A DNA stretch of 64,000 nt from Nitrospirota bacterium (GCA_049325335.1 JBMOMC010000002.1:352001-416000), one strand, 5' to 3'; counted from the stretch's first letter, positions 3,452 to 57,921 are shown. The notes: generated from the letters alone by a model not told the origin. Program-made: numbers and translations.

Positions 3452-4162
3452 ATTCGACTCAAGGACAAAGTGGCGTTGGTGACGGGCGGGGGGCGCGGCA
3501 TCGGTCGGCAGATCGCGTTGGCGTTCGCGGCCGAAGGCGCGCACGTGGCGGTGGCCGCGCGGACGGAGCGAGAAATTAAGCCGGTGGCCGAGCGGATCGC
3601 CGCGTTGGGACGGCGCGCGTTGGCGGTGCCGACCAACGTGACGGATGAAACGCGGGTGGCGGAGTTGGTGGCGGAGACGGAACGCGCGTTCGGACGGATC
3701 GATATTTTGGTGAACAGCGCGGCGGTCGCCATCATCGAACCGCTGGCCAATACCACGGCGGATCAGTGGCGCCGAACCCTGGACGTGAACGCGACCGCCG
3801 CGTTTTTGACGATCCGGGCCGCGATGCCCGGCATGTTGAAGCGCAATGACGGCCGGATCATCAACATCGCGTCCACCGCCGGCCTTGAGGGGTTCGCGAA
3901 CTTTTCCGCGTTTTGCGCGTCCAAGTTCGCGTTGATCGGCCTGACCCGTTCGTTGGCCAAGGAGTTGGAGGGCACCGCGGTGACCGCCAACGCATTGTGC
4001 CCGGCGCTGGTGGGCACTAAACGCGCGGCGCCGACAGGACCCAAAACTCGCGCGAGCGCGCCGGAACCGTTTTCCGAGATCGCGGACGTCGCGGTGTTTT
4101 TGGCCGGGGATCGGGGGAGGGCGGTCTCTGGCGCGGCCATCGAAATCTCCTGGCGCACATAG
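3452..4162 (+). CDS. SDR family oxidoreductase, probable ATT start
   Basis: IRLKDKVALVTGGGRGIG, NSAA, FCASK (catalytic Tyr replaced by Phe). AAGGAGG lies 7 nt before ATT 3452 and there is an in-frame stop at 3428. Confidence 0.8.
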   Translation: MRLKDKVALVTGGGRGIGRQIALAFAAEGAHVAVAARTEREIKPVAERIAALGRRALAVPTNVTDETRVAELVAETERAFGRIDILVNSAAVAIIEPLANTTADQWRRTLDVNATAAFLTIRAAMPGMLKRNDGRIINIASTAGLEGFANFSAFCASKFALIGLTRSLAKELEGTAVTANALCPALVGTKRAAPTGPKTRASAPEPFSEIADVAVFLAGDRGRAVSGAAIEISWRT

Positions 4163-4287
4163 GCGCCCGTTGATCAGGGGCCATCTGCGGCGTTGTCGCT
4201 TCGGAATCCCTCCTCACGTACGACCCAGTACGCTGTGGGGGGATTCCTCGCTCCGCCTTGCATCTGGCCCGCTGCTGAACGGGCGCC
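4162..4287 (+). repeat. Structured intergenic repeat, copy A
   Basis: Termini GGCGCCCGTT/AACGGGCGCC; cores CATCTGCGGCGTTGTC, CTCACGTAC-N6-GTACGCT, CTCGCTCCGCCTTGCATCTG shared with the copies at 26.2, 56.3 and 57.8 kb. Confidence 0.9.
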
Positions 4288-4321
4288 GATTCCGCGGAGG
4301 ATCAACAGAAAAAATCATGAG

Positions 4322-4981
4322 ATGATCAAGGCAAAGTCGTTGACGATCGACCTACTGTTGTTCGATTTGGATGGCACGCTGGCGGATACCAAGGAGGATT
4401 TGGCGACCGCGGTGAACCTCACGTTACGCGACTACGGCGTGCCCGAGCACCCGCGGGAACGGATCTACGAGTTTGTGGGCGACGGGGTGCGGCCGCTGCT
4501 GGCGCGCGCGTTTGAGAGCCGCGGGGCGCAGGTGTTCGACGAGGCGCTGGGCGTGTTCCGGCGGCACTACTTAGAGCATTTGCTCGACGCGACGCGGTTG
4601 TATCCCGGCGTCGAAGCGGTATTGACCCATTTTGCCGGAAAGAAAAAGGGCGTGGTGACCAATAAGCCCATCGAATACACGATCAAATTGATCGAAGGTC
4701 TCGGCGCGCGCGCGCGCTTCGACGTGATCGTGGGCGGGAACAGCACGCCGCACCTCAAACCCCATCCGGCCATGATCGAGCGGGCGTTGGGCACGGTGGG
4801 GATCAAACCCGAGCGGGCCGTGATGATTGGCGACAACGTCAACGATATTCACGCGGCTCGCGCGGCGGGTGTGCACTCCGTGGCGGTCGGCTACGGCCTG
4901 GGCAATCCTGCCGTGCTCAAAGCCGCGGGACCTGATTTTTTTTGCGAGCGTCTTGAAGAGGTGATCGACCTTTTTTCGTGA
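4322..4981 (+). CDS. HAD family hydrolase (phosphoglycolate phosphatase-like)
   Basis: FDLDGTL, VVTNK, KPHP, MIGDNVND. Confidence 0.88.
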   Translation: MIKAKSLTIDLLLFDLDGTLADTKEDLATAVNLTLRDYGVPEHPRERIYEFVGDGVRPLLARAFESRGAQVFDEALGVFRRHYLEHLLDATRLYPGVEAVLTHFAGKKKGVVTNKPIEYTIKLIEGLGARARFDVIVGGNSTPHLKPHPAMIERALGTVGIKPERAVMIGDNVNDIHAARAAGVHSVAVGYGLGNPAVLKAAGPDFFCERLEEVIDLFS

Positions 4982-4989
4982 GGCGTGGC

Positions 4990-5670
4990 ATGCGTCCTCG
5001 AACCATGATGATCGTCCTGGGAGTGTTGTTCGCCTGCGCGGGTTGTGCCACGCCCCGGCAGTCCGCCGACGAGGTCAATTCCGGGTTGCTGTGGTTCGTC
5101 CCGTTGGACGATGCGGCGGGGTGGGCGCTTGCGGACCCGGGGGCCATGCGGTTGGAGCGATCCCCCACGGTCGTGCTCGCCTGGGGCCCATCCGCGTCGG
5201 ACGGCCCACGCGTGCCGACATTGATCCGCTCCGATCGGGAACAGTGGATTGCCGCCATTAAATCCAAGCTGGAGGGCAGCGGGTGGGTCACGCGCGTGGA
5301 GGGTAGCGCCCCGGAAACGTTTGAAGGCGGGGTCACCGTGAACGGGTTGCGGACGCTAGCCAGCGCTCGGGACGCGGATTTGATCGTGCTGTTCGGGCGC
5401 GACGTGTCGGAGCGGCGGTACCACGTGTCGTGGCCGACCCGGCCCGTGTACGTGGTGGACGTCATCGAAATCCGGACCACGGCGCGGGCGGTGGGAGTGA
5501 CGTCCGCGGGGCGTCCGGTGTTCGCCGAAGCCCAGACCGGTTTCGAGGAGGGGCGGACGTTGTTTGAGTCGGAGGTGCGTGAAGCCTCGAGCCGGTCGGC
5601 CGTGAACGCATTGGCCGACGCCATTGTGCGGCGGCTCAAGCAGATCGCGCCTCAACAAGGCGCGCCGTGA
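4990..5670 (+). CDS. Hypothetical lipoprotein
   Basis: Signal peptide ending in lipobox-like FACAGC; overlaps the next gene by 4 nt. Confidence 0.6.
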   Translation: MRPRTMMIVLGVLFACAGCATPRQSADEVNSGLLWFVPLDDAAGWALADPGAMRLERSPTVVLAWGPSASDGPRVPTLIRSDREQWIAAIKSKLEGSGWVTRVEGSAPETFEGGVTVNGLRTLASARDADLIVLFGRDVSERRYHVSWPTRPVYVVDVIEIRTTARAVGVTSAGRPVFAEAQTGFEEGRTLFESEVREASSRSAVNALADAIVRRLKQIAPQQGAP

Positions 5671-7175
5671 GCCGGTTGGTTCGAGGCGCCGCGCTGGCTG
5701 CGTGGTTGGTGAGCGTGCCGCTCGCGGCGGACGCGGCCTCACTGCTGGAGGGCCGCGTCGTGGAACGCACGCTGGCGAACGGCTTGCGCGTGTTGATCGT
5801 GAAGCGCGCCGCGGTGCCCACCGTGTCCTACAACCTCACCGTGCGGGTGGGATCGGTGGACGAGCCGGGCGGGAAGAGCGGTCTGGCGCATCTCTTCGAG
5901 CACATGGCGTTTAAGGGCACGGAGACGATCGGGACCGCGGATTTTTCCCGCGAACAGCCGTTGTTGGAGGAGGTGGATCGGCTCGAAGCCGACCTGCGAC
6001 GCGCGGTGAACGCGCCCAGTGTGCACGACGAGGAACGGACCGCGGACCTGCGTCGGCGGTTCGACGAGGCGCAGGCGCGAGCCCGATCGTTGGTGGCGCC
6101 GAACGAATACGGCGCGCTGTATGATCGGCACGGCGCGGTCGGGTTCAACGCGACCACGGGTGCGGACCTGACGCGGTACACGGTCAGCTTGCCGGCCAAT
6201 CGGTTGCCGCTGTGGACGGCGTTGGAGGCCGATCGGTTCAGTCGGCCGGTGTTCCGCGAGTTTTACACCGAGCGGGACGTGGTGCTGGAGGAGCGGCGGA
6301 TGCGGGTGGAGAACAACCCGGGAGGCAAACTCTACGAAGCCTTGTTATCCACGGCGTTCTCCACGCATCCGTATCGCGTGCCCACGATCGGGTGGGGTTC
6401 GGAAGTCGCGGCGTTGGCCGCGCCGGACGCCAAGGCGTTTTTCCGCGGCCACTACGGCCCGGGAAACTCGGTGATCGCCATCGTGGGCGACGTGGACGTC
6501 GACGACGCGTTACGGCGAGTGGCGGACGCGTTCGGCTCGATTCCCGCGCGACCGTCGCCCGAGCCTCTTGCCACGCGCGAGCCGTCCCAAGAGGGGGAAC
6601 GGCGGGTCGAAGTCGAATACGACGCGCAACCGCAATTGCTCATTGCGTACCACCGGCCCGGAATCGAGGACCCCGACGATCCGGTGTTCGACGTGATCGA
6701 GTCCCTACTCTCGTCCGGGAGACGATCGCGCTTGTACGCCGAGTTAGTGAGCGCGCGTCAGGTGGCGGTGGCGGCTTCCGCCAACGCGAGCGCGCCCGGC
6801 ATCCGCTACCCGACGTTGTTCGTGGTGGATGCGGTTCCGCGAGCCCCACACACGCTGGACGACGTCGAGTCCGCGTTGTTGGAGCAGATCGAGCGCCTAC
6901 GACGCGAGCCGGTGTCCGAGCGCGAACTGACGCGGGTGGTGAACCGGCTCGACGCGGACCTGGTTCGCTCGCTGCAGTCCAACGCGGGACTGGCCTCCCA
7001 ATTGGCGTATTTTCAATCCGTCATCGGCGACTGGCGGTACGTACTCACGATTCGAGATCGGGTGGCCGCGGTCACGCCCAAGGATATTCAACGCGTGGCT
7101 GCGAAGTGGTTCGTCAAATCCAATCGGACCGTGGCGCGGTTGGTCAAGCCCTCCCCCCCGGGGGAGACGCCGTGA
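5667..7175 (+). CDS. M16 family (pitrilysin-like) zinc protease, catalytic subunit
   Basis: GLAHLFEHMAFKG inverted zinc motif (HxxEH), FNATT, ERDVVLEERR; signal peptide. Confidence 0.92.
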   Translation: MSRLVRGAALAAWLVSVPLAADAASLLEGRVVERTLANGLRVLIVKRAAVPTVSYNLTVRVGSVDEPGGKSGLAHLFEHMAFKGTETIGTADFSREQPLLEEVDRLEADLRRAVNAPSVHDEERTADLRRRFDEAQARARSLVAPNEYGALYDRHGAVGFNATTGADLTRYTVSLPANRLPLWTALEADRFSRPVFREFYTERDVVLEERRMRVENNPGGKLYEALLSTAFSTHPYRVPTIGWGSEVAALAAPDAKAFFRGHYGPGNSVIAIVGDVDVDDALRRVADAFGSIPARPSPEPLATREPSQEGERRVEVEYDAQPQLLIAYHRPGIEDPDDPVFDVIESLLSSGRRSRLYAELVSARQVAVAASANASAPGIRYPTLFVVDAVPRAPHTLDDVESALLEQIERLRREPVSERELTRVVNRLDADLVRSLQSNAGLASQLAYFQSVIGDWRYVLTIRDRVAAVTPKDIQRVAAKWFVKSNRTVARLVKPSPPGETP

Positions 7176-8644
7176 CGCGCTACTCGCTCGCGGGGCTCAT
7201 GATCGCGCTGATTGCGTCGGCTGCGTTGGCCGCGACCGGCCCGTCCGCGTCCACGCCGGTTGATCCGCGCGCGATGGCGTTTCCGACCGAGCCGTTTACG
7301 CCGCCCAAGGCCGAACGGATCAGGCTTTCCAACGGGATGATCGTCTATCTGCTGGAAGATCACGAACTCCCCTTGGTCAGCCTGAGCGCGATGATTCGAA
7401 CCGGGAGCATGTACGACCCGGCGGACAAGGTGGGGCTTGCGGAATTGGCCGGGACCGTGATCCGCACCGGGGGCTCCGCGTTGCGTTCCGGCGACGAGTT
7501 GGACGATGCGCTCGAGTTCGTGGGCGCGGAAATGAGCTCGTGGGCCGGCCTGGATTCCGCGGGCGCGTCGTTAAACGTATTGACCAAGGATTTGCCGAGC
7601 GGTCTGGAGATGTTCGCCGAGATGTTGATGCGCCCGGCGTTCGCCCCAGAGAAAGTGGACCTCGCGAAAAACCAGATGATCGAGGCCGTGCGTCGGCGCA
7701 ACGATCATCCCGGCTCGATTGCGGCGCGGGAATTCAGAAAACTGTTGTACGGAGCGGACCACCCGTACGGCCGCGAGAGCACCGAGGCCACGATCCGCGC
7801 CGTGACGCGCGAGGACCTCACGGCGTTTCACCGGCGGTACTACCATCCCAACAACATCATGTTGGCCGTGACCGGCGATATTCGCCGCGACGACCTCCTG
7901 GCGTTGCTGCGGCGCGGGTTCCAGGCGTGGCCTCGGGCCGCGGTGACATGGCCGTCGGTGCCGCCCGTGGGCGAACCGCGAAACGCGCCGGTCAATTTCA
8001 TCAGCCGAGACGTTACTCAAACGCAGGTGCGGATGGGATGGCTGTCGATCAAACAGTCCGATCCGGATTTTTTCGCCCTCTCGTTGCTGGACGACATCGT
8101 GGGTGGGCAGGCGTTCACCAGCCGGCTGTTTCAGGAGGTGCGCACCAAGGCCGGGTTGGCCTATTCCGTCGGTAGCGCGCTTAACGCGGGACGGTTCGAT
8201 CGCGGCTCGTTTGTGTTGTTCGCGCAAACCAAGGCCGAGTCCACCACGCGCGCCATCGAGGCGATCCGCGCGGAGATCAACCGCGTGGCGAGTGAACCGG
8301 TGTCGGAACGGGAGTTGGCCGACGCCAAACAGGCGTTCGTCAATTCGTTCGTGTTTTCGTTTTCCAGCCCGGCACAAATTACCAACCGACAGATGTCGCT
8401 CGAGTACTACGGGTTGCCGGCCGATTTTTTGGATCGATTCCGCGCCAACGTCGAGAACGTGACCGCGCGGGATCTCCTGCGGGTGGCGAAACGTCACCTG
8501 GATCCTGGACGGCTCGTGGTGCTCGCGGTGGGGGATGATCAGCGGTTTGACAAACCCCTTGCCACGGTCGGGCGCGTTCGAACCTTGACTGTCAGCGAAC
8601 CGGGCGGACCGTCCCCGTCGCCCGGCGCGACGGACGCTCAGTAA
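7172..8644 (+). CDS. M16 family protease, non-catalytic partner subunit
   Basis: LSNGMIVYLLEDHELP, SRLFQEVRTKAGLAYSV; lacks HxxEH; GTG overlaps the upstream stop. Confidence 0.9.
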   Translation: MTRYSLAGLMIALIASAALAATGPSASTPVDPRAMAFPTEPFTPPKAERIRLSNGMIVYLLEDHELPLVSLSAMIRTGSMYDPADKVGLAELAGTVIRTGGSALRSGDELDDALEFVGAEMSSWAGLDSAGASLNVLTKDLPSGLEMFAEMLMRPAFAPEKVDLAKNQMIEAVRRRNDHPGSIAAREFRKLLYGADHPYGRESTEATIRAVTREDLTAFHRRYYHPNNIMLAVTGDIRRDDLLALLRRGFQAWPRAAVTWPSVPPVGEPRNAPVNFISRDVTQTQVRMGWLSIKQSDPDFFALSLLDDIVGGQAFTSRLFQEVRTKAGLAYSVGSALNAGRFDRGSFVLFAQTKAESTTRAIEAIRAEINRVASEPVSERELADAKQAFVNSFVFSFSSPAQITNRQMSLEYYGLPADFLDRFRANVENVTARDLLRVAKRHLDPGRLVVLAVGDDQRFDKPLATVGRVRTLTVSEPGGPSPSPGATDAQ

Positions 8645-9741
8645 CGTTTTTGGATCAGCAACGCGGCCGCGACCGCGACGAACAATCCGTTGGCCAGCCA
8701 GGCGGCCAACGCGGGGTGGAGCGCGCCACCTCGTCCCAGCGAGATCGAGAGCGAATACACCATCCAGTACGCCAACGCGACCAGCAACCCGATGCCCACC
8801 GCCATACCCCACCCTCCGCGTCGCGAGTCCATGAGTCCGAAGGGAATCCCGATGATGGACATGACGATCGTGATGAAGGGCACGGAAAATCTGGACGCGG
8901 CGTCCACCGCGTACCGCCCAGGTTTGATACCCGAGGCATCCAAGTCCTCCACGTACGCCCGTAACTGGGGGTAACTGAGGAACTCTTCCTTGACCTCGAT
9001 CTGCCCGAAGTCGTCGGGCATCTTGGCCAGATCGAGCGGGCGTTCGGCGAATCGCTCCACGCGCACGGAACCGTCGTCGAGAAATCGACGCTCGATCCCG
9101 TCGAACGCGGTCCACGCGCCGCGATCGAACGTGACGCGAGCGGCGTTGATCTCGCGATCGAGGGTGAATCCCGTCCCCACCTCATACAGCCGGACGCCAT
9201 ACAGGGAATTGGACGCGGGGTCGGTCATCCGGACGTTCAGGAAGGTTCGGCGCTCCAGTCGGACCCAGACGCGGTTGCGTTGAAGAGCGGACGGGCTCGG
9301 ACGGCCATCGATCCGGACGTTTTTGACGTGTTGCGCGCTTGCGAACGCGGCGGGGATCAGCGACCAGTTGGCTGCGAACGCAGCCCCGGCCAAGACCGCT
9401 GAGGCGAGCACGATGGGGGTCACGATGCGTGAGAGCCCGACGCCGCATGCGCGCAGGGCGGTGACCTCGTGTTGGCGAGACAGGAGGCTCACGGTCAACA
9501 CGCCGGCGATCAGTCCGGCCAGCGGCAACACTTCGTACGCGGCGCGCGGCATTTTGAGCGCCAGATACGCGGCCAACGCGGTCAGCTCCGGTTGGTGGTC
9601 GGCGGCCTTTCCCGCCTTACTGAAGATTTCCGTGATCGAATAAATCAACACCAGCGCGGCGAGCGCGAGGCCCGCGACGCGGAGGTATTGCCGGGCGATA
9701 TATCGAAAGAGGATCGGCATGGTCGGCGGCGGTCCGCTCAC
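8638..9741 (-). CDS. lptG: LPS export ABC permease LptG
   Basis: ILFRYIAR, HEVTALRACGV, LHPALAAWLAN; YjgP/Q topology; tandem with the lptF-like gene. Confidence 0.85.
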   Translation of the reverse strand: MSGPPPTMPILFRYIARQYLRVAGLALAALVLIYSITEIFSKAGKAADHQPELTALAAYLALKMPRAAYEVLPLAGLIAGVLTVSLLSRQHEVTALRACGVGLSRIVTPIVLASAVLAGAAFAANWSLIPAAFASAQHVKNVRIDGRPSPSALQRNRVWVRLERRTFLNVRMTDPASNSLYGVRLYEVGTGFTLDREINAARVTFDRGAWTAFDGIERRFLDDGSVRVERFAERPLDLAKMPDDFGQIEVKEEFLSYPQLRAYVEDLDASGIKPGRYAVDAASRFSVPFITIVMSIIGIPFGLMDSRRGGWGMAVGIGLLVALAYWMVYSLSISLGRGGALHPALAAWLANGLFVAVAAALLIQKRY

Positions 9742-9742
9742 G

Positions 9743-10849
9743 TCACCCGGCGGCTCGATCCAACCGCCAGAGGAGGATCACCACGCCGGCGGCCAACACC
9801 GCGTTCGGCAGCGCCGCCGCCGCGAGGGGCGGGAGCCACCCGCGGGCGGCCGCGTCCGCCGCGATCATCAACACATAATACGCCCCGATCGCGAGCACGC
9901 CGAACGCAAACCCGCTGAGGCGCCCGGTCCGGCCGGTCGAAAGTCCGAGGGGCACGCCGAGCACGCCCAACCAGAACGTGGCGAGGGGGAACGCCAGGTC
10001 TTTGTATGTTGTAAACAGCGCGTGGGTGGTCTCGGCGGACACCGACCCGGTGTCACGGCGTTCGGCCCGGGCGCGCGCGCGCAACGCGGGTAGGGACTCC
10101 TGATCGGGCTCGACCCGCGCGCCTGATTGCAGGCGCGACGGGTCCAGTTTGACCTCGTAACTCTGAAACTTGGCGAGTTGATACCGGTCGGGGTCGTGAC
10201 CGCCCGGTGCGCGGTGCAGGCTGCCCTGGTGCAGGCGCAGGCTGAACGCGGACTCGCCGTCGTTGAGGAATGCGCCGTGATCCGCCAAAATCAGCCATTC
10301 CGAACCCTTTACGCGTTCGTCCACGATCAGCACGCCTTCCATCCGATTCGGTTCCGGCACCCGCTCGACGTACAGGGTCATCCCGGCGAGGCCGTCGTTG
10401 AACGCGCCTTCCGTGACCGCGAGCGTTGCCTGTTGCTTGAGCAGATCGCCGGTTAACCCGCGAAAGGACCGCCCGCTCCAGGGTTCACCCACCAACGCGA
10501 TGGCGTAGACGGCCGCGCAGAGGACGGCGGAAAAGACCGCGGCCGGCCAGACCAGGCGGCGGGTCGGACAGCCGGTGGCGCGCAAGGCCAGGATTTCACG
10601 GTCCGCGGCCAAGCGATTAAACGCGCCGATCGTGGCCATCATGGCGGCGATCGGCACGGTGACCACGAAAAACGCGGGCAACAGGGCGGCGAAGATGCGG
10701 AGCAGGGTCCCCGAATCCACGCCGCGGTTCACCAACAGGTCCACCAGCCGCAACGCCTGTTGCGTGACCAGTAAAAAAGCGAGCGCCGCCACGCTTAGCG
10801 CGAAGGGGAACAGCAATTCCTTGACCAAGTACCGGGAAAGAATCGTCAC
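9743..10849 (-). CDS. lptF: LPS export ABC permease LptF
   Basis: TILSRYLVKE, RLAADREILALRATG, EGAFN, LPPLAAAALPN. Confidence 0.85.
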   Translation of the reverse strand: MTILSRYLVKELLFPFALSVAALAFLLVTQQALRLVDLLVNRGVDSGTLLRIFAALLPAFFVVTVPIAAMMATIGAFNRLAADREILALRATGCPTRRLVWPAAVFSAVLCAAVYAIALVGEPWSGRSFRGLTGDLLKQQATLAVTEGAFNDGLAGMTLYVERVPEPNRMEGVLIVDERVKGSEWLILADHGAFLNDGESAFSLRLHQGSLHRAPGGHDPDRYQLAKFQSYEVKLDPSRLQSGARVEPDQESLPALRARARAERRDTGSVSAETTHALFTTYKDLAFPLATFWLGVLGVPLGLSTGRTGRLSGFAFGVLAIGAYYVLMIAADAAARGWLPPLAAAALPNAVLAAGVVILLWRLDRAAG

Positions 10850-11023
10850 GCACGCTCTCGATGGCCGGCTCACTATATCGAAAGGCCGCCGACCGCGCAA
10901 TCCACCGGGCCGACCGACGTGGCCCAACGGGCCGCCGCGGCCGGAAGTCTTGACACGAACTCACCCTCTGTTACAGTTTGGTCCAGGTACCGTCGCCGTG
11001 AGCGGCCATCTCCCGGAGGATCC

Positions 11024-26190: not shown

Positions 26191-26361
26191 GGAGCCTGTT
26201 GAGGAACGCGTCAGACGCCCCCTTCGGGGACTTCCGGCATTTGAATTCTTGGCGGTGGGTCGCAAGGCGGAGCGAGCGCCCGCACCGCAGCGTACTGGGT
26301 CGTACGTGAGAAGCGGACGCGCAGGGACAACGCTGCGTATGACCGTTCATCGACAGGCTCC
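26191..26361 (-). repeat. Structured intergenic repeat, copy B (45-nt insertion)
   Basis: On the minus strand GGAGCCTGT..CTCACGTACGACCCAGTACGCT..CTCGCTCCGCCTTGC..ACAGGCTCC; begins at the copA stop codon. Confidence 0.9.
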
Positions 26362-28724
26362 TACAGCGAGGTGCGGCGGAGGCGGAGGGAGTTGGCAATG
26401 ACCGACACCGAGCTAAAACTCATCGCCGCGCTGGCCCAAATCGGACTGATCAGCGGCCCCCCGAACGGCACCAGCAGCCCGGCCGCCACCGGCACGCCGA
26501 TCGCGTTGTACACGAACGCGAAGAACAGGTTCTGCCGGATCGTACGCATGGTGGCGCGGCTCAAGCCGCGCGCCCGTGCGATCGCGCGTAGGTCGCCTTT
26601 GACCAAGGTGACGCCCGCGCTCTGCATAGCCACGTCCGTGCCCGCGCCCATGGCGATGCCCACGTGCGCTTGGGCCAACGCGGGCGCGTCGTTGATCCCG
26701 TCACCGGCCATGGCTACGATCCGTCCCTCGGCCTGCAACGCTTGAACGATCTCGCGCTTTTGCGCTGGGAGGACTTCCGCGCGCACATCGTCGAGGCCGA
26801 GGGTCGATGCTACGGCCTGCGCGGTGACGCGCGAATCGCCGGTGACCATCACCACGCGCAGTCCGGCGCGGTGCAGGAGCGCAATGGCTTCGGGCGTGGA
26901 CGGTTTGACGGGGTCGGTCACGGACAACAGGCCCGCGGGCCGGCCGTTCATGGCGAGCCACACCACGGTGGCGCCTTTGCGGCGGTGCTCATCGGCCCGG
27001 ACCGCCAGATCGCCGAGCGCGACGCCTTGCCCGTCGAGAAAGGTTTGCGTGCCGAGCGACACGCGCGCGCCGTCGACCACGCCGCTTACGCCTTGGCCAG
27101 TGACGGAGTGAAACTCCTGCGTGTCCGAGAGTCCGAGCTGGCGGGCCTTGGACGCGGCGACGATGGCGGCCGCGAGTGGGTGTTCGCTGGCGCGTTCCAA
27201 GCTCGCGGCCACGCGCAGGATCTGATCGCCGGTAAACCCCGGCGCGGCCTCGATGCCGGTGAGCGCGGGCTTGCCCTCGGTCAATGTGCCGGTCTTGTCC
27301 ACCACCAGCGTGTCCACGCGTTCGAGAATCTCCAACGCCTCCGCGTTCTTGATCAACACGCCGGTCTCCGCGCCGCGGCCCACGCCCACCATCACGGCCA
27401 TGGGCGTGGCCAGGCCGAGCGCGCATGGGCACGCGATGATCAACACGGCCACGGCATTGACCAAGGCCAGAGCCAAGCGGGGTTCCGGGCCCCAGAGCCA
27501 CCAGCCAATGAACGCGAGCGCGCTGACGGCCATCACCAGGGGGACAAAGTAGCCGGACACGGTGTCGGCCACGTGTTGGATCGGCGCGCGGCTGCGCTGC
27601 GCGTCGCTCACCATGCGGACGATCTGGGCCAACAACGTGTCGGCTCCCACGCGGTGTGCTTTCATGATCACGGAGCCGGTGCCGTTGATGGTCCCGCCGA
27701 CCACGGCCGAACCCGCGGTCTTCTCGACCGGGATGGGCTCGCCGGTAATCATCGACTCATCGACCGACGTGCGGCCCTCGACCACCACGCCGTCCACCGG
27801 GACTTTTTCACCGGGCCTGACCCGTAAGACGTCGTCGCGCTGCACCCGTTCGATCGGGACATCTTCTTCGCGGCCGTCGCGTATCAGGCGCGCGGTTTTG
27901 GGGGCAAGGCCCAGGAGCGCGCGGATCGCGGCGCCGGTGCGGCCGCGCGCGCGAAGCTCCAGCACTTGGCCCAGCAGCACCAGGACGGTGATCACCACCG
28001 CACTGTCGAAGTACGGCTCCACCGCGCCGTGCACGCGAAAGCCTTCCGGGAACAGGCCGGGCGCGATCGTGGCTGCCGCGCTGTAACCGTACGCCGCGCC
28101 CACGCCCACCGCGATCAATGTGAACATGTTGAAATTGCGGCTCACCAACGAGGCCCAGCCGCGCTCGAAAAACGGTTTCCCGGACCAGAGCACCACCGGC
28201 GTGGCCAGGAGCAACTGGAACCAGCTCGAGACGCCCATGGGGACGGCGTGGCGCAGGGTTCCGCCGACCAACATATCGGCCATGGCCAGGGCAAATACCG
28301 GGAATCCGACGATTAAGCCGACCCAGAATCTGCGGGTCATGTCGAGCAACTCGGGATTCGGTCCTTCTGTGATCTGTACGGTGCGGGGCTCCAGCGCCAT
28401 GCCGCAGATCGGGCAGGGCCCCGGTTTATCGCTCAGCACCTCGGGGTCCATCGGGCAGATGTATTCGATCTTGGCGCCGGGCGGCGTAATCGGTGCCGGA
28501 GGAGGCTCCGGTCGTTTGACTGTGAGCGGCGCGCCGATCGTCACGAGTTGCGGCTTCCGTGGTGCGAGGTAGCGAGCCGGGTCGGCGGCGAATCGTTCCT
28601 GACAACTCGGGTTACAGAAATAGTAGGTCGTGCCGTCGTGGACGTGCGTACCACCCTTGGGATTGGCGGTCGGTACGGTCATACCACAAATAGGATCAAT
28701 GGCGGTCTGGGAACGTTCAGCCAT
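26361..28724 (-). CDS. copA: Copper-translocating P1B-type ATPase with YHS and heavy-metal binding domains
   Basis: DPICGM..YYFC YHS domain, [43 protein letters not shown]. Confidence 0.93.
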
Positions 28725-40457: not shown

Positions 40458-40533
40458 GGGGCTGTAGCGCAGTTGGGAGCGCGTCAGACTGGCAGTCTGA
40501 AGGTCAGGGGTTCGATCCCCCTCAGCTCCACCA
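40458..40533 (+). tRNA. tRNA-Ala (GGC)
   Basis: GGGGCTG acceptor stem with G3-U70, TCAGA-CT-GGC-AG-TCTGA anticodon arm, GTTCGA T-loop, CCA end; TTGACA-N18-TATTCT promoter at 40370-40399. Confidence 0.97.
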
Positions 40534-47117: not shown

Positions 47118-48183
47118 GGGACGTTCTTTTAAGATTTAAACTCTTTACGCAGTGAGCGACTACATGGTATAGGAGGGGCCATGCCGCGATGCGCTCGACT
47201 CGACGCTCCGGGATTGCTGCACCACGTAATTGCGCGGGGAATCGAGCGACGTGTCATCTTTAGTGATGACGGCGACCGGGCGAATTTCCTCCAGCGGTTG
47301 GCCCGCCTTCTCCCGGAGACGGGGACGACGTGCCTGGCGTGGTGCTTGTTATCGAATCATCTGCATCTGCTCGTTCGCTCGGGGCCGGATGGGTTGGCGT
47401 GGTTCATGCGACGGGTGCTCACGGGCTACGCGGTGTACTTCAATCGTCGATATGACCGGGCCGGACACCTGTTCCAGAATCGCTACCATTCCACGGTGTG
47501 TGAGGCCGAATCCTACCTGCTTGAGCTGGTTCGATACATCCACCTCAATCCCGTCCGGGCTGGGCTGGTCCCTGACATCCAGGCGTTGCGGCAGTATCCC
47601 GGGTGCGGGCACTCCGCCGTGATGGGAGTAATCCCGCGTTCCTGGCACGCCACCGACGAAGTGCTGGCGCAATTCGGCGCCAACGCGAAGATGGCCCGTC
47701 AACGATATGAGGCCTTCCTACAAGACGGTCTCGAACGGGGAGACCTCGCGGCGCGCATCGACGAGTCTGGTACCGAACCCGAAATGAAGGGGACGCGCGA
47801 TGCCGATGGGCCGGACCGAAGAATGAGTCAGGTGCTGGGACGTCCGGAATTCGTGGAAAGCGTGAGCAGGCGATCAAACGCGGCGGTCGCCGGTCGGCGC
47901 AAGAGCGGCCGAGCGCTTTTGCGGGAGGTTTGTCGGGTGTTGAATCTCGCCCCGGATGAGCTGCGGTCGGGGCGCCAGGAGCGGAGCCTGGCAAACGGGC
48001 GGGCGATCGTGGCCTATCTGGGCCGTAGTCGTTATCGACTGACGGGCGTGGAACTATCGGACGTGTTGGGATTGAGTCAGCCGGCGGTGAGCCTGGCGGC
48101 CCAGCGCGGGCAGCGCCTGTTGGCGGGGAACGCGGCTTTCCGCGAAGCGCTGGATGAGATATAAAATCTTTAAAGAACGTCCC
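47118..48183 (+). mobile_element. RAYT-type element bounded by 20-bp inverted repeats
   Basis: GGGACGTTCTTTTAAGATTT (47118-47137) vs AAATCTTTAAAGAACGTCCC (48164-48183), 19/20 match, AT-rich in a GC-rich background. Confidence 0.75.
47181..48164 (+). CDS. REP-associated tyrosine transposase (Y1 HUH) with C-terminal DnaA-like HTH
   Basis: MPR.AR..PG..HHVIARG, NHLHLL (HUH), GHLFQNRY, RYIHLNP; C-terminal helical/HTH domain. Confidence 0.9.
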   Translation: MPRCARLDAPGLLHHVIARGIERRVIFSDDGDRANFLQRLARLLPETGTTCLAWCLLSNHLHLLVRSGPDGLAWFMRRVLTGYAVYFNRRYDRAGHLFQNRYHSTVCEAESYLLELVRYIHLNPVRAGLVPDIQALRQYPGCGHSAVMGVIPRSWHATDEVLAQFGANAKMARQRYEAFLQDGLERGDLAARIDESGTEPEMKGTRDADGPDRRMSQVLGRPEFVESVSRRSNAAVAGRRKSGRALLREVCRVLNLAPDELRSGRQERSLANGRAIVAYLGRSRYRLTGVELSDVLGLSQPAVSLAAQRGQRLLAGNAAFREALDEI

Positions 48184-48441: not shown

Positions 48442-48449
48442 GCCCCGCC

Positions 48450-49828: not shown

Positions 49829-49880
49829 CTTGCCCTCCGGCGAGCCGATATAATCCACCGATCATTTCGCCGTCGCTCAT

Positions 49881-50756: not shown

Positions 50757-50766
50757 TCGTGGGGGG

Positions 50767-51420: not shown

Positions 51421-51421
51421 C

Positions 51422-51787
51422 GTGGAAATCATCGAACTCCCGATTAAGCTGGACGAAACGGCCCTGGACTCCCGCTACCGCATGGTGGTGATCGGCGCGC
51501 AGCGCGCCCGGCAACTGATGGAAGGCGCGCGCGCCAGCGAGCATACCAAGTACGCCAAGGCCACGACCGTGGCGTTGGAAGAGTTTCTGGCCGGCGAGCT
51601 CAGGTTCGTCACGGGCAAGGAGGCGCGTTTGGCCCAACGCGACGCGCGCAAGAAACGCGAGGAACTGATGCGGCGTCGCGCGTTGTTGGAGCGCGAAGAG
51701 GAAATCAGCGCCGAGATCAAGAAAGACCTGTCGGTGTACATCGACGATTCGGCGCGGCGAGCCTCCGAGACGCCGGGGCCGGCCTAA
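51422..51787 (+). CDS. rpoZ: RNA polymerase omega subunit with C-terminal extension
   Basis: SRYRMVVIGAQRARQL..K.TTVALEE; between gmk and coaBC. Confidence 0.9.
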   Translation: MEIIELPIKLDETALDSRYRMVVIGAQRARQLMEGARASEHTKYAKATTVALEEFLAGELRFVTGKEARLAQRDARKKREELMRRRALLEREEEISAEIKKDLSVYIDDSARRASETPGPA

Positions 51788-51796
51788 CGTCACGGC

Positions 51797-52999
51797 ATGT
51801 TGAGCGGGCGACGCATCCTGTTGGGGGTCACGGGGAGCATCGCCGCGTATAAAGCGGTCTCGCTGTTGCGGCGGCTGACCGCGCTGGGCGCGGAGGTCAC
51901 GGTCGTCATGACCGAGTCGGCCACGCGTTTCGTGGGCCCCCTGACCTTCCAGACCCTGTCCGGCCGCCCGGTCTACTACAACCTGTTCGAACCACGCGAA
52001 GAAATCCTCCACCTCACCTTGGCCGACACGGCCGACGTGTTTGTGATCGCGCCGGCCACCGCCAACACGATCGCGAAGTTGGCCGCCGGCGCCGCGGACG
52101 ATTTGCTGTCGGCCCTCGCGCTCGCGGCGCGCGGGCCGGTGGTGTTGGCGCCCGCCATGGACGCGGTGATGTGGGAACACCGGTTGGTGCAGCGCAATCT
52201 GGCCGCGTTGCGTGACGGCGGGATGACGGTGGTGCCTCCCGAGTCCGGTTCGTTGGCCTCCGGCCTGGTGGGCCCCGGGCGGTTGGCGTCGGAGGAGGCG
52301 ATCATCGCGGCGGTGACGGCTCGGTTGGGCGCCGGTGGGAACTGGTCCCGCGAACGCGTGGTGGTGACCGCCGGCCCGACCAGCGAGCCGATCGACCCGG
52401 TGCGCACGATTACCAACCGATCATCGGGGAAAATGGGGTACGCCGTGGCCGCGGCCGCGTCCAAGCGCGGCGCCGCGGTCACGTTGATCAGCGGGCCGAC
52501 CCGGATGGCGCCGCCGCCCGGCATGTCGGTGGTGTGGGTGGAGACCGCGGAGGAGATGCGGCGCGCGGTGCTCGATCACGTGGGCAAGGCCACCACCCTG
52601 ATCATGGCCGCGGCCGTGGCGGACTTCCGTCCGAAAACGATTCATCCCGAAAAAATGAAGAAGCGGGCCGCGCCGGTGACGCTGGAACTCGTGCCCACTG
52701 AAGATATCCTGGCGGCGGTGGCGAATCGCCGGGGCGAGTTGTTCGTGGTGGGGTTCGCGGCGGAAACGGACCGAGTCATCGAACACGCGTCCGAGAAACT
52801 CAAGGCGAAGCGGTTGGATCTGATCGTGGCCAACGACGTGTCGATTCCGGGGATTGGATTCGGGGCGGATGCCAACGAGGTGATCCTGATCGACCGAACC
52901 GGCGCGGTCACGCCCCTCCCACGCCTTCCCAAGTCCGAGGTGGCGGAGCGGATCTTGGATCGCGTGGAATCGCTCCGCGCCCCGTCACCGGAACCATAG
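51797..52999 (+). CDS. coaBC: Bifunctional PPC decarboxylase/PPC synthetase
   Basis: GVTGSIAAYK, APATAN, APAM, TAGPT.EPIDPVR, SSGKMG, GFAAET. Confidence 0.96.
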   Translation: MLSGRRILLGVTGSIAAYKAVSLLRRLTALGAEVTVVMTESATRFVGPLTFQTLSGRPVYYNLFEPREEILHLTLADTADVFVIAPATANTIAKLAAGAADDLLSALALAARGPVVLAPAMDAVMWEHRLVQRNLAALRDGGMTVVPPESGSLASGLVGPGRLASEEAIIAAVTARLGAGGNWSRERVVVTAGPTSEPIDPVRTITNRSSGKMGYAVAAAASKRGAAVTLISGPTRMAPPPGMSVVWVETAEEMRRAVLDHVGKATTLIMAAAVADFRPKTIHPEKMKKRAAPVTLELVPTEDILAAVANRRGELFVVGFAAETDRVIEHASEKLKAKRLDLIVANDVSIPGIGFGADANEVILIDRTGAVTPLPRLPKSEVAERILDRVESLRAPSPEP

Positions 53000-53137
53000 C
53001 CCGGCGGGGCGGGCGTGACCCGAGTCCGACCGATCTGGTTGACTTTCTTCATGAAGTTGGTAAGATGAGGGCCGTTTCCCGCGGTCTCTGACGCACGAAC
53101 CGCTCGTCACGGGATCCGAAACGCCAGGGAGGGCCGT

Positions 53138-54346
53138 TTGTCGAACACGAACGAAACCCGGTCGCCGGAACTCCAGAAACTCGAAGAAAAGCTTCGTAAA
53201 GACCCGACGAGTAAGCTGTTCTTCCCGTTGGCGGAAGAATACGCCAAGATCGGCCGGGTGGACGAAGCCATCGCGCTGTTGCGAACCGGCGTGAAGGCGC
53301 ACCCGGACTTCTTGGGGGCGCGGGTGGCGCTGGGAAAAGCCTTGTTCAGGAAAGGCCTGCACGTCGAGGCCCGACAGGAATTCGAGCAGGTCATTGCCGC
53401 GAACCCCGACAATCTGATGGCCCACAAGAAGTTGGCCGCGATCTACCTCAAGGACGGCGAGAGGGACAAAGCCCTGGCTTCGTGTGAGATCATCTTGGCG
53501 GTCAACCGGGTTGATGCCGAGGTGTTGCGGCTCAAGGAAGAGATCAACCGGTTGCCGGATCAGGCGGCTGACGTCGAGCCAACCGTGGTGGCGCACGCCC
53601 CGCCGTCCGTCGAGGAGGCCACGCCATTACTCGAGGAGGCGGTCGAACCCACGGTCATCATGGCGCCCGTCGCCAGTGACTCCGATATTGCGGACGCCAC
53701 GGAGATCGTGTCGCGACCGGATGAACCGCCCAGGGCGGTGATGGAACCCACGGCCGAGGTGAGGGGGGACGAGTCGTGGGTGGAGCCGACCGTGGTGATG
53801 GAACCCGCGGCCGAGGCGAGGGGAGGCGAGTCGTGGGTGGAGCCGACCGTGGTGATGGCGCCCGTTGCGAACGACTCCGATATCGCGGAAGCGACCGACG
53901 TGCGGTCGGTGTCGGGTGAACCACCGGTGACATCCGGGGTGTCGGACGAACCCGATGGGCACATCGCCGGCGAGCCGGGTAGTGATGATCTGGCCACGGT
54001 ATCGCTGGCGGATCTCTACGTGGCGCAGGGCCATTACGACCAAGGCATCGCCATCTATCGACGGTTGTTGGAGCGGACGCCCGCGGATCACGACATGGCC
54101 GCGAAACTGGACAACGCGCTGACCTTGGCGCGGCTGTTGTCGCCGACGCCGGTGGACGCCGACGAGGTCAAGTCTGAAATCGTGTCCCAGGTCTTGGGCG
54201 GGGGAGACGACATGGGAATGCCGGTCGCGGAGGAGGTCGCGCAGCCCTCGGTGGTGGGCGCCGCGGCCGGGCCGTTGCGCCATCAGGCCGCGATTCACCG
54301 TCTCGAGCTGTGGTTGGCTCGCATCGCAGAAAGGCGTCATCGATGA
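53138..54346 (+). CDS. TPR protein with acidic repetitive linker
   Basis: DPTSKLFFPLAEEY N-terminal TPRs, TVSLADLYVAQG, LELWLARI; TTG start after SD. Confidence 0.8.
   Translation: MSNTNETRSPELQKLEEKLRKDPTSKLFFPLAEEYAKIGRVDEAIALLRTGVKAHPDFLGARVALGKALFRKGLHVEARQEFEQVIAANPDNLMAHKKLAAIYLKDGERDKALASCEIILAVNRVDAEVLRLKEEINRLPDQAADVEPTVVAHAPPSVEEATPLLEEAVEPTVIMAPVASDSDIADATEIVSRPDEPPRAVMEPTAEVRGDESWVEPTVVMEPAAEARGGESWVEPTVVMAPVANDSDIAEATDVRSVSGEPPVTSGVSDEPDGHIAGEPGSDDLATVSLADLYVAQGHYDQGIAIYRRLLERTPADHDMAAKLDNALTLARLLSPTPVDADEVKSEIVSQVLGGGDDMGMPVAEEVAQPSVVGAAAGPLRHQAAIHRLELWLARIAERRHR
53737..53858 (+). repeat. 57-bp in-frame tandem duplication
   Basis: GGTGATGGAACCC..GTCGTGGGTGGAGCCGACCGT at 53737 and 53794 (19-aa unit). 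Confidence 0.85.
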
Positions 54347-54699
54347 ATCTTGCCGCGTCGCTGCAGTCGATTCTGAACGATATCGATGACGCCGAGGGCA
54401 TCGCGTTGATCGGGCTCGACGGCATCATCGTCAACGAAGTGAAACGAACGCCGGGAATAGACCTCAACACGCTCGCGGCCGAATACTGTGGGTTGTGGCG
54501 CGAGATGGATCGCGTGTCGGGCGGATTGTCGTTCGGGGCGACCGAGGAGTGTTCGATCGCCAGCGAGGGGCGGACGTTGTTGTTTCGACGCGTGACCCCG
54601 GAATATTTTCTCGCCTTGTCGATGGGCCGAAACGCCAACGCCGGCAAGGGCCGGTTCCTGCTGCGATACGCCGCGCCCCAACTGGCCAGGGAACTGTGA
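54343..54699 (+). CDS. Roadblock/LC7 domain protein (MglB/MglC-like)
   Basis: GIALIGLDGIIV, GKGRFLLR; 118 aa. Confidence 0.85.
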   Translation: MNLAASLQSILNDIDDAEGIALIGLDGIIVNEVKRTPGIDLNTLAAEYCGLWREMDRVSGGLSFGATEECSIASEGRTLLFRRVTPEYFLALSMGRNANAGKGRFLLRYAAPQLAREL

Positions 54700-55187
54700 C
54701 CGCTCGCCTCGCGCGGAGGCGGCTGCCGCGGATTCTCGTGTTGCACGGCCCGAATCTCAATCTCCTCGGCGTTCGGGAGCCCGATCTCTACGGCGTTCGT
54801 TCGTTGAAGGACGTCAACGAGATGATCCGCGCGGCGGCCAAAAACGCGGGGGCCGAGGTGGAGATCCGCCAGTCCAACCATGAGGGGGAGTTGGTGGCGT
54901 GGATTCAGGACGCCGGGGATCGGTTCGACGCCGTGGTGCTCAACGCCGCGGCCTACACCCATACTAGTATCGCGATCCGTGACGCGATCGCGGCGGTGCG
55001 TATCCCCACCGTCGACGTGCACCTGTCCAATATTCACGCCCGGGAACCGTTCCGCCGCCACTCGCACATTGCGGAAGTGGCGGTCGGTCAGGTCAGCGGC
55101 TTCGGCGCCCACAGCTACGCGCTCGGCATCGAGGCCGCGGTTCATTATCTCCGAAATCGTTCCAACGGCCCCGCGTCCGGGGTCTGA
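54696..55187 (+). CDS. aroQ: Type II 3-dehydroquinate dehydratase
   Basis: HGPNLNLLG.REP..YG, QSNHEG, THTSIA, HLSN..RE.FR. Confidence 0.95.
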   Translation: MTARLARRRLPRILVLHGPNLNLLGVREPDLYGVRSLKDVNEMIRAAAKNAGAEVEIRQSNHEGELVAWIQDAGDRFDAVVLNAAAYTHTSIAIRDAIAAVRIPTVDVHLSNIHAREPFRRHSHIAEVAVGQVSGFGAHSYALGIEAAVHYLRNRSNGPASGV

Positions 55188-55232
55188 CCGATTCGGTCGC
55201 ATCAGCGCGTTGCGCATGAAGGAGACGAGTCA

Positions 55233-55799
55233 GTGATTGTCACAACCGATTTTCGCAATGGTTTGAAACTGGAAGTGGACGGCGAACCCATGGAAATCAT
55301 CGATTACCAGCACGTGAAACCGGGCAAGGGCGGGGCGTTCGTTCGCACCAAGATGCGCAATCTCAAAACCGGCAACGTGTTGGAGCGCACGTTTCGATCG
55401 GGCGAGAAATTCGAAGACCCGCAGGTCCAAGAGCGGAAAATGCAGTACCTCTATCTCCAAGACGGGAACTACCACTTCATGGACACGGATTCGTACGAAC
55501 AGTTGTTTCTGTCCAAGGAGCAGATGGGAGACTCGTGGCAGTTTCTCAAGGAGAACATGGAGGTCGATATCCTGTTTTGCAAAGGCAAGCCGCTCGGCGT
55601 CAGCTTGCCATTGTTCGTGGAGTTGGCGATCGTAGACACGGCGCCGGGCATCCGGGGCGACACTGCAACCGGCGGCACCAAGCCCGCCACGCTCGAGTCC
55701 GGCGGGGTCGTGAAGGTGCCCTTTCACATCGGGCCGGGGACCGTCATCAAAGTCGATACCCGGACCAAAGCGTACGTCGAGCGGGTCAAGGGGCCATGA
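55233..55799 (+). CDS. efp: Elongation factor P
   Basis: [32 protein letters not shown]. Confidence 0.97.
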
Positions 55800-56254
55800 A
55801 TCTTCGCGAGATCAAAGAACTCATTGATTTGGTCAAAACCAGCGAGTTGACCGAACTGGAGTGGGAGCGATCCGGCGTGCGCGTCCGAATCTGCCGCGCG
55901 CCGGCGCCGATCGTGCGGCACTTGGCATCGGAGGGCGCGGTCGTCGCGGGGAATGTGCCGCAGGGCGCGCCGGCCGGGGAGGCGGGCGACGCCGCCTCCG
56001 CGAAGGAAGCGAGCGGAGTGGCCATCCGTTCGCCGATCGTCGGGACCTTCTACCGCGCCGCATCGCCCGAGGCCCCTCCCTACGTGGAAGTCGGCGACCG
56101 CGTTCGCCGAGGGCAGATCCTGTGCATCGTGGAGGCCATGAAGCTCCTGAATGAAATCGAGTCGGAGGTTGACGGCGTGGTCGCGGAGATTTTGATCGAA
56201 AACGCGCGGCCGGTCGAGTATGGCGAGGTCCTCTTCCGCATCGAGCCCACTTGA
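55796..56254 (+). CDS. accB: Biotin carboxyl carrier protein
   Basis: [12 protein letters not shown] biotinylation motif, PVEYG. Confidence 0.95.
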
Positions 56255-56378
56255 GAGCCTGGCGATGAACGGTCATCTGCGGCGTTGTCGCTGCGCTTCG
56301 GGTGCTCACGTACACACGGAGTACGCTCCGATCCGGTGCTCGCTCCGCCTTGCATCTGACGCGTTCCTCACCAGGCTC
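56255..56378 (+). repeat. Structured intergenic repeat, copy C
   Basis: GAGCCTGG/CCAGGCTC termini with the shared core motifs; starts at the first base after the accB stop. Confidence 0.9.
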
Positions 56379-56417
56379 CGAGGGTAGTGCCCTCGGAACA
56401 GAAGAAAAAAGAGAAGA

Positions 56418-57782
56418 ATGGCGGGGCTATTTAAAAAGATATTGATTGCCAACCGCGGCGAGATTGCGCTGCGGATCATTCGTTCCTGTCGCGATCTCGG
56501 CATCCAGACCGTGGTGGCTTACTCCGAGGCCGACGCCGAGAGCCTGCCCGTTCAACTCGCCGACCAACGAGTGTGTATCGGCCCGCCGGACGCGGGGTTG
56601 AGTTACCGAAACATTCCGAACATCTTGAGCGCGGCCGAGATCACGGGCGCCGAAGCGATCCATCCCGGGTATGGATTTTTGGCTGAAAACGCCCAGTTTG
56701 CCGAGGCGTGTGAAGCGGCCGGCCTCAAATTTATCGGGCCGTCGCCCGAGAGCATCGCGCTGATGGGCGACAAGGCCAAGGCGCGCGAGTTGATGATCAA
56801 GCATGGGGTGCCCGTGATCCCCGGCAGCACGGGCGCGGTGCGCGACGAAGCGGACGCGCGCGAGACGGCCAAGCGCATCGGGTATCCCGTGATCGTCAAG
56901 GCCTCCGCGGGCGGCGGCGGGCGGGGGATGCGCGTGGTGAACCAGGAGGACGATCTCCTCAAGGCCCTACAGACCGCGCAGACCGAGGCCAAGTCCGCGT
57001 TCGGCGACGACTCGGTGTATCTGGAGAAGTATTTCATCGATCCGCGGCACATTGAAGTTCAGATCCTGGCCGACAAGAAGGGCCATACGATCGCGTTGGG
57101 CGAACGGGATTGCTCCATCCAACGGCGGCATCAAAAGCTGCTCGAAGAGTCGCCCTCGCCGGCCGTCAGCCCGGAGTTGCGACGCGAGATGATGAAGGTG
57201 GCGATCGACGCAGTTAAGGCCGCCAAGTACGTCAACACCGGAACGGTCGAGTTCTTGTTGGATAAACATCAGCGGTTCTACTTCATCGAAATGAACACCC
57301 GGATTCAGGTGGAGCACCCCGTGACCGAAATGGTCGTGGATATGGACCTGATCAAAGAACAGATCATGGTCGCGTCGGGCCGCCCGCTCGCGATCAAACA
57401 GCGGGACGTGAAGCTGCGCGGCCACGCCATCGAATGCCGGATCAACGCAGAGGACCCGGAGCGCTTCACCCCGTCGCCCGGGACTATCTCGGTGTACCAC
57501 GTGCCCGGCGGGCCCGGCGTGCGCGTGGATTCCGCGGCGTACCCAGGGTGCGTAATCTCGCCCCACTACGATTCCCTGGTAGCCAAGGTGATCGTCACCG
57601 GGGAGACGCGGTTGGAGGCCATTGCCCGGATGAAACGCGCGCTCGCGGAGTTTCGAATCGAAGGCATCAAAACCACGATCCCGCTGCAACGGCGGATTAT
57701 GGACGACCCGAATTTCATCAAGGGCAAGTTCTCCACGGGGTTTCTGGAACGGTTCCTGTCGGCCGACGAACCGGCCGCGTAG
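56418..57782 (+). CDS. accC: Biotin carboxylase
   Basis: [49 protein letters not shown]. Confidence 0.97.
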
Positions 57783-57784
57783 CC

Positions 57785-57921
57785 GCCTGTCCATGAGCGG
57801 GCATCTGCGGCGTTGTCCCTGCGCGTCCGCTCCTCACGGTTTTCGTAGGGGCGTACGGCCGTACGCCCCCTACACGTGCGGGCGCTCGGTCTGCCTTGCA
57901 TCTGCCCGCTCCTGAACAGGC
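57785..57921 (+). repeat. Structured intergenic repeat, copy D, with nested GTAG-type REP palindrome
   Basis: GCCTGT/ACAGGC termini; GTAGGGGCGTACGGCCGTACGCCCCCTAC at 57845-57873 replaces the central hairpin. Confidence 0.9.

Follow-up and report, generated by a model that had tools for sequence, protein, structure and literature searches.

Hairpin repeats at stop codons of a Nitrospirota genome: IS1182- or IS5-type ends around an ERIC-related core

A 64,000-nucleotide window of a Nitrospirota genome (GCA_049325335.1 JBMOMC010000002.1:352001-416000) carries four copies of a long hairpin repeat, each beginning at a stop codon. The repeat appears to be a non-autonomous element of ~125-150 bp, with ends typical of the insertion sequence (IS) families IS1182 or IS5 placed around a hairpin core shared with ERIC. 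Probably, IS1182 and IS5 transposases moved a unit of ~150 bp in trans into 4-bp targets that contain a stop codon, carrying as cargo the ERIC-type core, the antisense fold of which a putative protein binds and selection maintains. An earlier, sequence-only reading of the window had stressed the fold instead: selection on a single-stranded structure rather than on terminal sequence, as in an undescribed structured RNA of 3' untranslated regions (UTRs) or intercistronic spaces, or in a single-stranded DNA (ssDNA) hairpin mobilised by an HUH enzyme.

The four copies (A, B, C, and D; Table 1) lie at the positions and on the strands first reported, and at stops as claimed: their 5' ends fall -1, -1, 0, and +2 nt from the stops of the genes for an SDR oxidoreductase, a P1B (CopA-type) ATPase, accB, and accC, respectively. 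The forecast of many copies genome-wide also held. A profile built from the four copies gave 92 matches in the genome of the window (G000; 3.25 Mb, a 45-contig assembly), and iteration brought these to 96 merged loci at E<=0.01; the reversed genome gave 0 matches. The apical motif occurs 64 times in the genome versus 0-1 times in three shuffles. Placement, judged from gene calls made with our own script, is strongly skewed: 57 of 90 anchored copies begin <=6 nt from a same-strand stop, compared with 7.5% under random placement. Flanking genes put 48 copies in sense tandem, 16 in antisense tandem, 23 in convergent and 2 in divergent contexts, with 1 at a contig end. Orientation is thus biased toward sense (48 versus 16 in tandem pairs, p=8e-5), but not absolutely so.

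Copies A, C, and D each fold as one long hairpin, and on either strand their RNA z-scores range from -4.1 to -9.0. The hairpin is a single stem-loop of 124-129 nt, in agreement with the ~127 bp of ERIC. The stem swaps first noticed by eye are real: among 42 insertion-free copies, 30 of 46 pairs show two-sided changes and 84% of cells are paired, a value reached by none of 500 shuffles and far beyond that of slid structures. The unit runs from a left arm through a core of ~85 nt to an inner right arm, which pairs with the left one; many copies continue with another spacer and an additional, outer right end. Because this outer end is ~25 nt past the hairpin, units often measure ~150 bp in full. 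Two end types predominate, GAGCCTGTCC and CAGGCTGCTGAAAAA, alongside a few private arms; the CAGGCTGCTGAAAAA subfamily has 18 copies, 8 of them with an outer end.

Other modules nest within the hairpin: a GTAG REP-like (repetitive extragenic palindromic) hairpin at 16 of the 96 loci, a GAAG-loop module at 20, and a third type at 7. A match to the 45-nt module of copy B is found at 20 of the 96. The list of shared blocks first proposed needs correction for copy D, which is without the CTCACGTAC..AGTACGCT apex and has a GTAGGGGCG..CGCCCCTAC REP-like hairpin instead. Hairpins of the latter type have 47 matches in G000, about one third nested in the family's apex and the others free.

Both end types match the ends of complete insertion sequences. 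The termini of full IS1182 and IS5 elements read CTAG-GAGCCTGTCC and CTAG-CAGGCTGCTGAAAAA; for IS1182 the match covers 10 bp of the left arm and up to 14/15 bp of the outer end, and for IS5 it covers 17 bp. A metagenome scan with an 18-mer of the outer end recovered complete elements, 1.26-1.65 kb in size, with CTAG-GAGCCTGTCCGAGTA at one side and its inverse at the other, in the form CTAG-GAGCCTGTCCGAGTA..TACTCGGACAGGCTC-CTAG; the two of these that were scanned encode IS1182 transposases (NF033551, 371 and 367 bits; cut-off 270). IS1182 elements in two genomes of the same class (G150 and G030) end in CTAG-GAGCCTGTCCGAC, and complete IS5-family elements of ~1.32 kb from the same phylum (L597, L599) end in CTAG-CAGGCTGCTGAAAAAGT, the end of the second subfamily here. 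The contention that selection acts on the fold rather than on terminal sequence is therefore not supported: both end types match those of complete IS1182 and IS5 elements, whose targets are CTAG.

The same scan gave coreless mini-shells of 31-55 bp and shells of 100-275 bp with hairpin cargo. Among 88 loci chosen by the IS1182 end alone, the model matched 6 at E<0.01, one of these beside a shell and not inside it. One shell, CAGG.TGCTGAAAAA, encloses different cargo, hairpins of the CCTTCGACAAGCTCAGGA type, at four places in G000 (C2:118116-118250, C2:447293, C44:221332, and C43:264729); shells therefore take several cargoes. A third shell type, with CCCGGACTATTCATGAA ends, CTAG flanks, and a variant core, occupies the copy C site in the accB/accC gap of G005 (L020). 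At L324, a CAGGCTG-type hairpin element adjoins an IS1182 left end, with one CTAG in common. An IS5/IS1182-type element end at L606 (G076 C194), CAGACTGTTGACAAACCCCG, is nearly the start of the YPAL/RU-2 repeat as printed in Table 1b of PMC2759123, which suggests that YPAL may also wear ends of this type.

Related genomes show that the unit comes and goes. In G001 and G003, 400 kb of each yielded 20 and 22 copies, respectively; for 14 evaluable copies from each genome, the corresponding G000 sites scored as empty in 9 cases and as filled in the same orientation in 5, the same split for both genomes. The window's own sites vary likewise. The copy A site in G003 is occupied by another subtype, and the copy B site is also filled there. 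The copy C site (accB/accC) holds other subtypes in G001, G002, and G004 and is empty in G003, and the copy D site (accC/thiE) is filled in G001 and G002, where the outer right end is better preserved, with the whole unit inverted in G003. One pair is clean: in G003 (L264), relative to the empty site in G000 (C11), ATGA is duplicated around exactly 150 bp, from left arm to outer end. A 4-bp duplication is also listed for a trapped IS1182 element in the relevant entry of PMC3281130.

The repeat works like a MITE (miniature inverted-repeat transposable element). The sequence-only reading had set a MITE of a known IS, lack of covariation, and an Rfam match against its own proposal. Because the ends match IS1182 and IS5 and the filled/empty pair shows a 4-bp duplication, the first of these is partly borne out; on the other side, covariation is significant, and Rfam returned 0 matches at E<=5 for 8 copies. 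At gathering thresholds the sole Rfam match in the whole window is a tRNA gene (40458-40530, +). Neither an intrinsic terminator nor a sigma-70 promoter was found at copies C and D.

Covariation and conservation in place together uphold the claim that selection acts on a single-stranded fold. Of 65 deviations of the left arm from consensus, 45 are matched in the inner arm, compared with 2 of 16 in the outer end. One case of conservation in place is a copy between rplW and rplB of the S10 ribosomal operon, present in 6 of 8 genomes (L094, L095, L097, L551-L553; genus g21) with paired changes in the outer stem, and with an extra module in G132. Between distant genomes this copy retains 0.83-0.91 identity, compared with 0.62-0.72 at third codon positions and 0.29-0.64 in the adjacent spacer; four of the six genomes have only 1-2 detectable copies. 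The hairpin outlives the end that it would need for movement, and so does not behave as an ordinary MITE predicts. Arm-to-arm template switching may be the source of some paired changes, but leaves the retained mismatches unexplained.

The strand on which this fold acts is a separate matter. The conserved unpaired positions are pyrimidines on the mRNA strand; on the antisense strand they form AA bulges, tandem GA, and G.T wobbles. Bases in the antisense internal loops number 564 A, 416 G, 152 C, and 32 T, and the apical G.T pair varies to G-C or A-T only. Among the 81 sequences of the wide set, the lower-energy fold is that of the antisense strand in 79 as RNA and in all 81 as DNA, and a strand-neutral count of mismatches in 75 sequences gives 119 antisense G.T versus 29 sense G.T. 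Across phyla the strand with pyrimidine loops follows stops (within 30 nt, 29 sense versus 7 antisense of 66). It is likely that the fold is selected on the antisense strand and retained by selection after insertion. A candidate protein would bind that fold, with its paired AA bulges and tandem-GA/G.T apical loop, as ssDNA or as antisense RNA, and the 3:1 sense bias could result from selection for the weaker-folding strand in mRNA.

The relation to ERIC was tested with a model, R1, built from 42 G000 copies only. On a whole Escherichia coli chromosome, R1 gave 4 matches at E<=1. The top one (E 0.0026) aligns with the entire length of ERIC; the same TCACGTAC..GTACGCTCC apex is present in the remaining three. 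A second repeat type in E. coli (NZ_LR778152; L103, L104, and L105), presumably RSA-like, has the family's apex with different arms. A canonical ERIC copy (L101), which scores 21.6 bits under R1 with filters off but escapes the filtered scan of the chromosome, agrees by eye with the RU-1 consensus as given in Table 1a of PMC2759123. Similarity to the ERIC consensus is modest in the core (21.6-27.7 bits) and the outer stems are unrelated, and the best named relatives of the repeat are in Nitrospirota genomes (L119, L134), outside the host range of ERIC. The hairpin repeat is a relative, not a member, of ERIC. "Undescribed" remains apt in that Rfam holds no such family, but must be qualified because the core is related to ERIC.

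That core is widespread. At least 121 loci match its pattern, in enterobacteria, Desulfobacterota, Clostridia, Bacteroidota, Campylobacterota, Scalindua, Nitrospirota, and others; the pattern scans were partly shaped by the known ERIC core, so that only the R1 tests in E. coli bear independently on the ERIC link. R1 aligned 90 matches from 100 loci in many phyla, with 44 of 46 pairs covarying in an alignment that, being fitted by a covariance model, leans toward structure. Some ERIC-type units form head-to-tail arrays with common ends (L184, L224, L159, L191). At four loci (L068, L087, L088, L092) a family member comes after a major capsid gene's stop, and the surrounding clusters resemble gene transfer agents or prophage head-tail modules.

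Reviews describe ERIC as a repeat of Enterobacteriaceae and Vibrionaceae (PMC10969869, in the sections consulted). In the portions consulted of PMC2229807, PMC2759123, PMC3184786, PMC10969869, PMC11602168, PMC1950547, and bioRxiv 10.64898/2026.09.15.751765, it is presented as enterobacterial or vibrional, with no identified transposase; the first two, in the same portions, describe its transfer mechanism as not worked out. No paper linking ERIC to IS5 or IS1182 ends, or to other phyla, was found in a literature search that left most subscription journals and supplements outside its reach. A broader reading is possible, though somewhat less likely than not: ERIC may be one branch of a pan-bacterial superfamily of cargo hairpins, whose core folds on the antisense strand, is bound by a candidate conserved protein, is kept by selection once inserted, and hitch-hikes in IS5 or IS1182 terminal repeats. 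Its range would take in Nitrospirota, Desulfobacterota, Bacillota, Bacteroidota, Campylobacterota, Planctomycetota, and the alpha- and gamma-proteobacteria.

In the mechanism favoured here, DDE transposases of the IS1182 and IS5 families would do the moving in trans, into 4-bp CTAG-like targets, and the placement on stop codons would arise because the 4-bp target contains TAG, TAA, or TGA. A number of observations weigh against it. Several concern the ends and junctions: no more than 10 bp of the left arm match the IS1182 end; a recognisable outer end is kept in only 20 of 77 main-subfamily copies, decayed by 1-5 of its 15 bases; among these 20 copies with both ends, drawn from G000, G001, and G003, the 4-bp duplication is exact in 1 and retains 3 of 4 bases in 7; and several of the "empty" sites are deletion remnants, not clean targets. 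Others concern the enzymes. The queries used found no matching transposase in the 45-contig G000 assembly, from which repeats may be missing. In a sample of 141 genomes from the phylum, 51 positive with R1 and 90 negative, IS1182 did not co-occur with the element (8/51 versus 16/90). IS5_4 is present in 18 of the 51 positive and 6 of the 90 negative genomes, but 13 of those 18 belong to one family, and the IS5_4 subgroup with matching ends is found in 3 positive and 4 negative genomes (25 loci read). Two end motifs of the Desulfobacterota type led to no transposase.

Further points bear on the core. It is absent from full IS elements (0 matches in 25 loci), it outlasts its own outer transposon end, and it stays conserved in place, three features that stand unexplained. 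In the close pair G147/G153 the element changes faster than synonymous sites (0.88 versus 0.91-0.96), so replacement also happens. Within G000 alone the G.T bias is not significant (58 antisense versus 39 sense, p=0.07), and strand p-values overstate the case because the sequences are related and model-selected. The four BLAST-defined ERIC copies of the E. coli chromosome are not among the four filtered matches of R1. Lastly, because ERIC ends are of the TATACC type with TA, the IS link does not extend directly to ERIC.

Searches were made for an autonomous partner. In G000, 16 partial matches to the element proved to be copies with modules or deletions, none flanking a transposase, and no long end pair was found. 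Four DDE_Tnp_1 contigs were rejected as a source, as were DUF772 loci in G000, G001, and G003; all have other ends. No transposase emerged from viral contigs with the inner-arm motif, and a search of plasmids for an annotated IS5 with the L307 end gave nothing useful. Genomes with low copy number, tried for a "master locus" beside an enzyme, have their copies after rplW and other ordinary genes.

The absence of the core from full IS loci invites the opposite view, which is unlikely but has the most to be said for it among the alternatives: that the core hairpin is itself mobile, by strand-specific ssDNA cut-and-paste under an HUH- or integrase-type enzyme, that it prefers small palindromes (mini-IS shells), and that its stem is extended by copying the flanking arm, the IS ends being captured target. 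The core does occur with unrelated ends in different lineages, and the order of parts (left arm, core, inner arm, spacer, and an outer end that decays) would suit such capture. IS200/IS605 ends and attC sites typically fold in a strand-specific manner. At C43:224785, G000 has the shell with neither core nor inner arm, G001 has the full unit, and outgroups are empty; this coreless shell could equally be a deletion, and deletion of the core between CATCTG-like direct repeats is seen elsewhere. Against mobility of the core alone, the sole clean junction spans both IS-type ends, and no enzyme recurs as a neighbour: 79 of 157 extracted open reading frames (ORFs), from flanks in many phyla with enterobacterial loci left out, show no enrichment.

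The specific suggestion of an HUH partner fares no better. The four Y1 genes of G000 have unrelated flanks and lie 7.4-16.8 kb from the nearest element, and RAYT-like genes do not track it (41/51 element-positive versus 55/90 element-negative genomes). RAYT was set aside as a partner: no RAYT gene is flanked by the repeat, and those in G000 have other flanking repeats. One RAYT-like Y1 tyrosine transposase gene lies in the window (47181-48164, +; NF047646 at 63.7 bits, short of its cut-off of 80). It has no relation to the hairpin family; the inverted repeat GGGACGTTCTTTTAAGATTTA / TAAATCTTTAAAGAACGTCCC flanks it, and a relative with similar ends is found at C43:109422-110390 of G000.

A further alternative is that the hairpin is a structured cis-regulatory RNA of 3' UTRs or intercistronic spaces, setting mRNA stability or translational coupling with mobility incidental, as proposed for ERIC in Yersinia. 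The sense placement after stops, here and across phyla, is what such an RNA would show, and so is conservation at rplW-rplB. ERIC, according to passages of PMC2229807, is reported to be co-transcribed and to destabilise upstream mRNA in an orientation-dependent way. A cis-regulatory RNA is nevertheless improbable: its stabilising features (G.U wobbles, tandem GA, and AA bulges) belong to the antisense strand, one in four copies in tandem contexts is reversed, gain and loss of sites are free (rplW-rplB lacks a copy in 2 of 8 genomes), and the host genes have no common function. Wobble pairs and purine-rich loops on the antisense strand therefore weaken the 3'-UTR interpretation first offered, though the G.T bias within G000 is not significant.

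It is very improbable that the repeat is an ordinary decaying MITE whose paired changes arise from neutral arm-to-arm template switching in long palindromes and gene conversion among copies: mutation is known to proceed by quasi-palindrome correction, an outer stem perfected throughout is seen in some copies (C1:233298, C37:4475, and C6:154894 among them), and orthologous sites swap subtypes and modules between genomes, but template switching should erase mismatches where the same bulges and mismatches persist across phyla, the element is more conserved than synonymous sites where donor copies are almost nil, and a neutral process gives no reason for strand asymmetry.

Table 1. Hairpin copies, their internal modules, and host genes in the 64,000-nucleotide window
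Feature	Position	Strand	Remark
Copy A hairpin	4163..4286	+	left arm, ERIC-like core, inner right arm; after ATAG 4159-4162 containing SDR stop
Copy B hairpin	26192..26360	-	after GTAG 26364-26361 containing P1B ATPase gene stop
Insertion module inside copy B (45 nt)	26216..26260	-	ends with small CCCC-GAA-GGGG hairpin
Copy C hairpin	56255..56378	+	immediately 3' of accB TGA
Copy D hairpin	57783..57921	+	after accC TAG; pairing from 57785
GTAG-type REP-like hairpin	57845..57873	+	nested in copy D apex
Decayed outer right end of copy D	57942..57960	+	IS1182-type terminal repeat, then CTAG
SDR oxidoreductase gene	3470..4162	+	host gene; stop codon is insertion point of copy A
Copper/heavy-metal P1B ATPase gene	26361..28724	-	host gene upstream of copy B
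accB	55796..56254	+	host gene upstream of copy C
accC	56418..57782	+	host gene upstream of copy D

Taken as a single locus, the repeat adds another family to a familiar kind; what makes it of interest is the link to IS ends, the breadth of the core, and the unexplained constraint on the antisense strand. An ERIC core is found in many phyla, and here it is framed by the exact ends of two named transposase families. Covariation and a position after stops do not suffice to call a repeat a 3'-UTR regulatory RNA. Two questions can now be tested: do IS1182 and IS5 transposases move ERIC-type hairpins, and what binds an antisense fold that outlives the transposon ends? If true, the superfamily reading would point to possible mobilisers, and to a possible role, of a repeat with a mechanism left open ever since it was described.

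The closest known system is ERIC (IRU, RU-1). Both are one long hairpin of ~125-127 nt, with an apex of the form TCAC-KTAC-loop-GTAM-GCTC (a compensatory G-C to T-A swap is seen in 31 of 89 rows) and a GCGTT..CGCCTT bulge motif; both lie at gene 3' ends in the same orientation, and the model trained on G000 detects both. The repeat differs in its outer stems and in its IS1182- or IS5-type ends with a 4-bp target, whereas Table 1 of PMC2229807 gives ERIC TA termini and a 7-bp terminal inverted repeat. It is also GC-rich, belongs to another phylum, and has a second outer end as well as modules nested inside it, REP-like ones among them.

MITEs derived from IS1182 and IS5 share the ends of full IS elements, the CTAG-like 4-bp target, and the lack of an ORF, and they include coreless and otherwise loaded shells of the kinds described above. 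The repeat's interior, in contrast, is not IS-derived and is more conserved than its ends; it is the duplicated inner arm that pairs with the left end, and the true right end decays. REP, REPIN, and BIME repeats with RAYT are likewise intergenic, palindromic, modular, and beside stop codons, and GTAG-type hairpins like theirs are nested in the family. The repeat is 4-5x longer than REP, has its own ends with no GTAG/CGTC tag, and flanks no RAYT gene.

Integron attC sites offer a likeness of principle: a variable hairpin with conserved unpaired bases, just after a stop, whose distinctive fold is on the antisense strand. Unlike attC, the repeat is dispersed behind housekeeping genes and not in cassette arrays, has no integrase among the 79 flanking ORFs, and bears IS-type ends.

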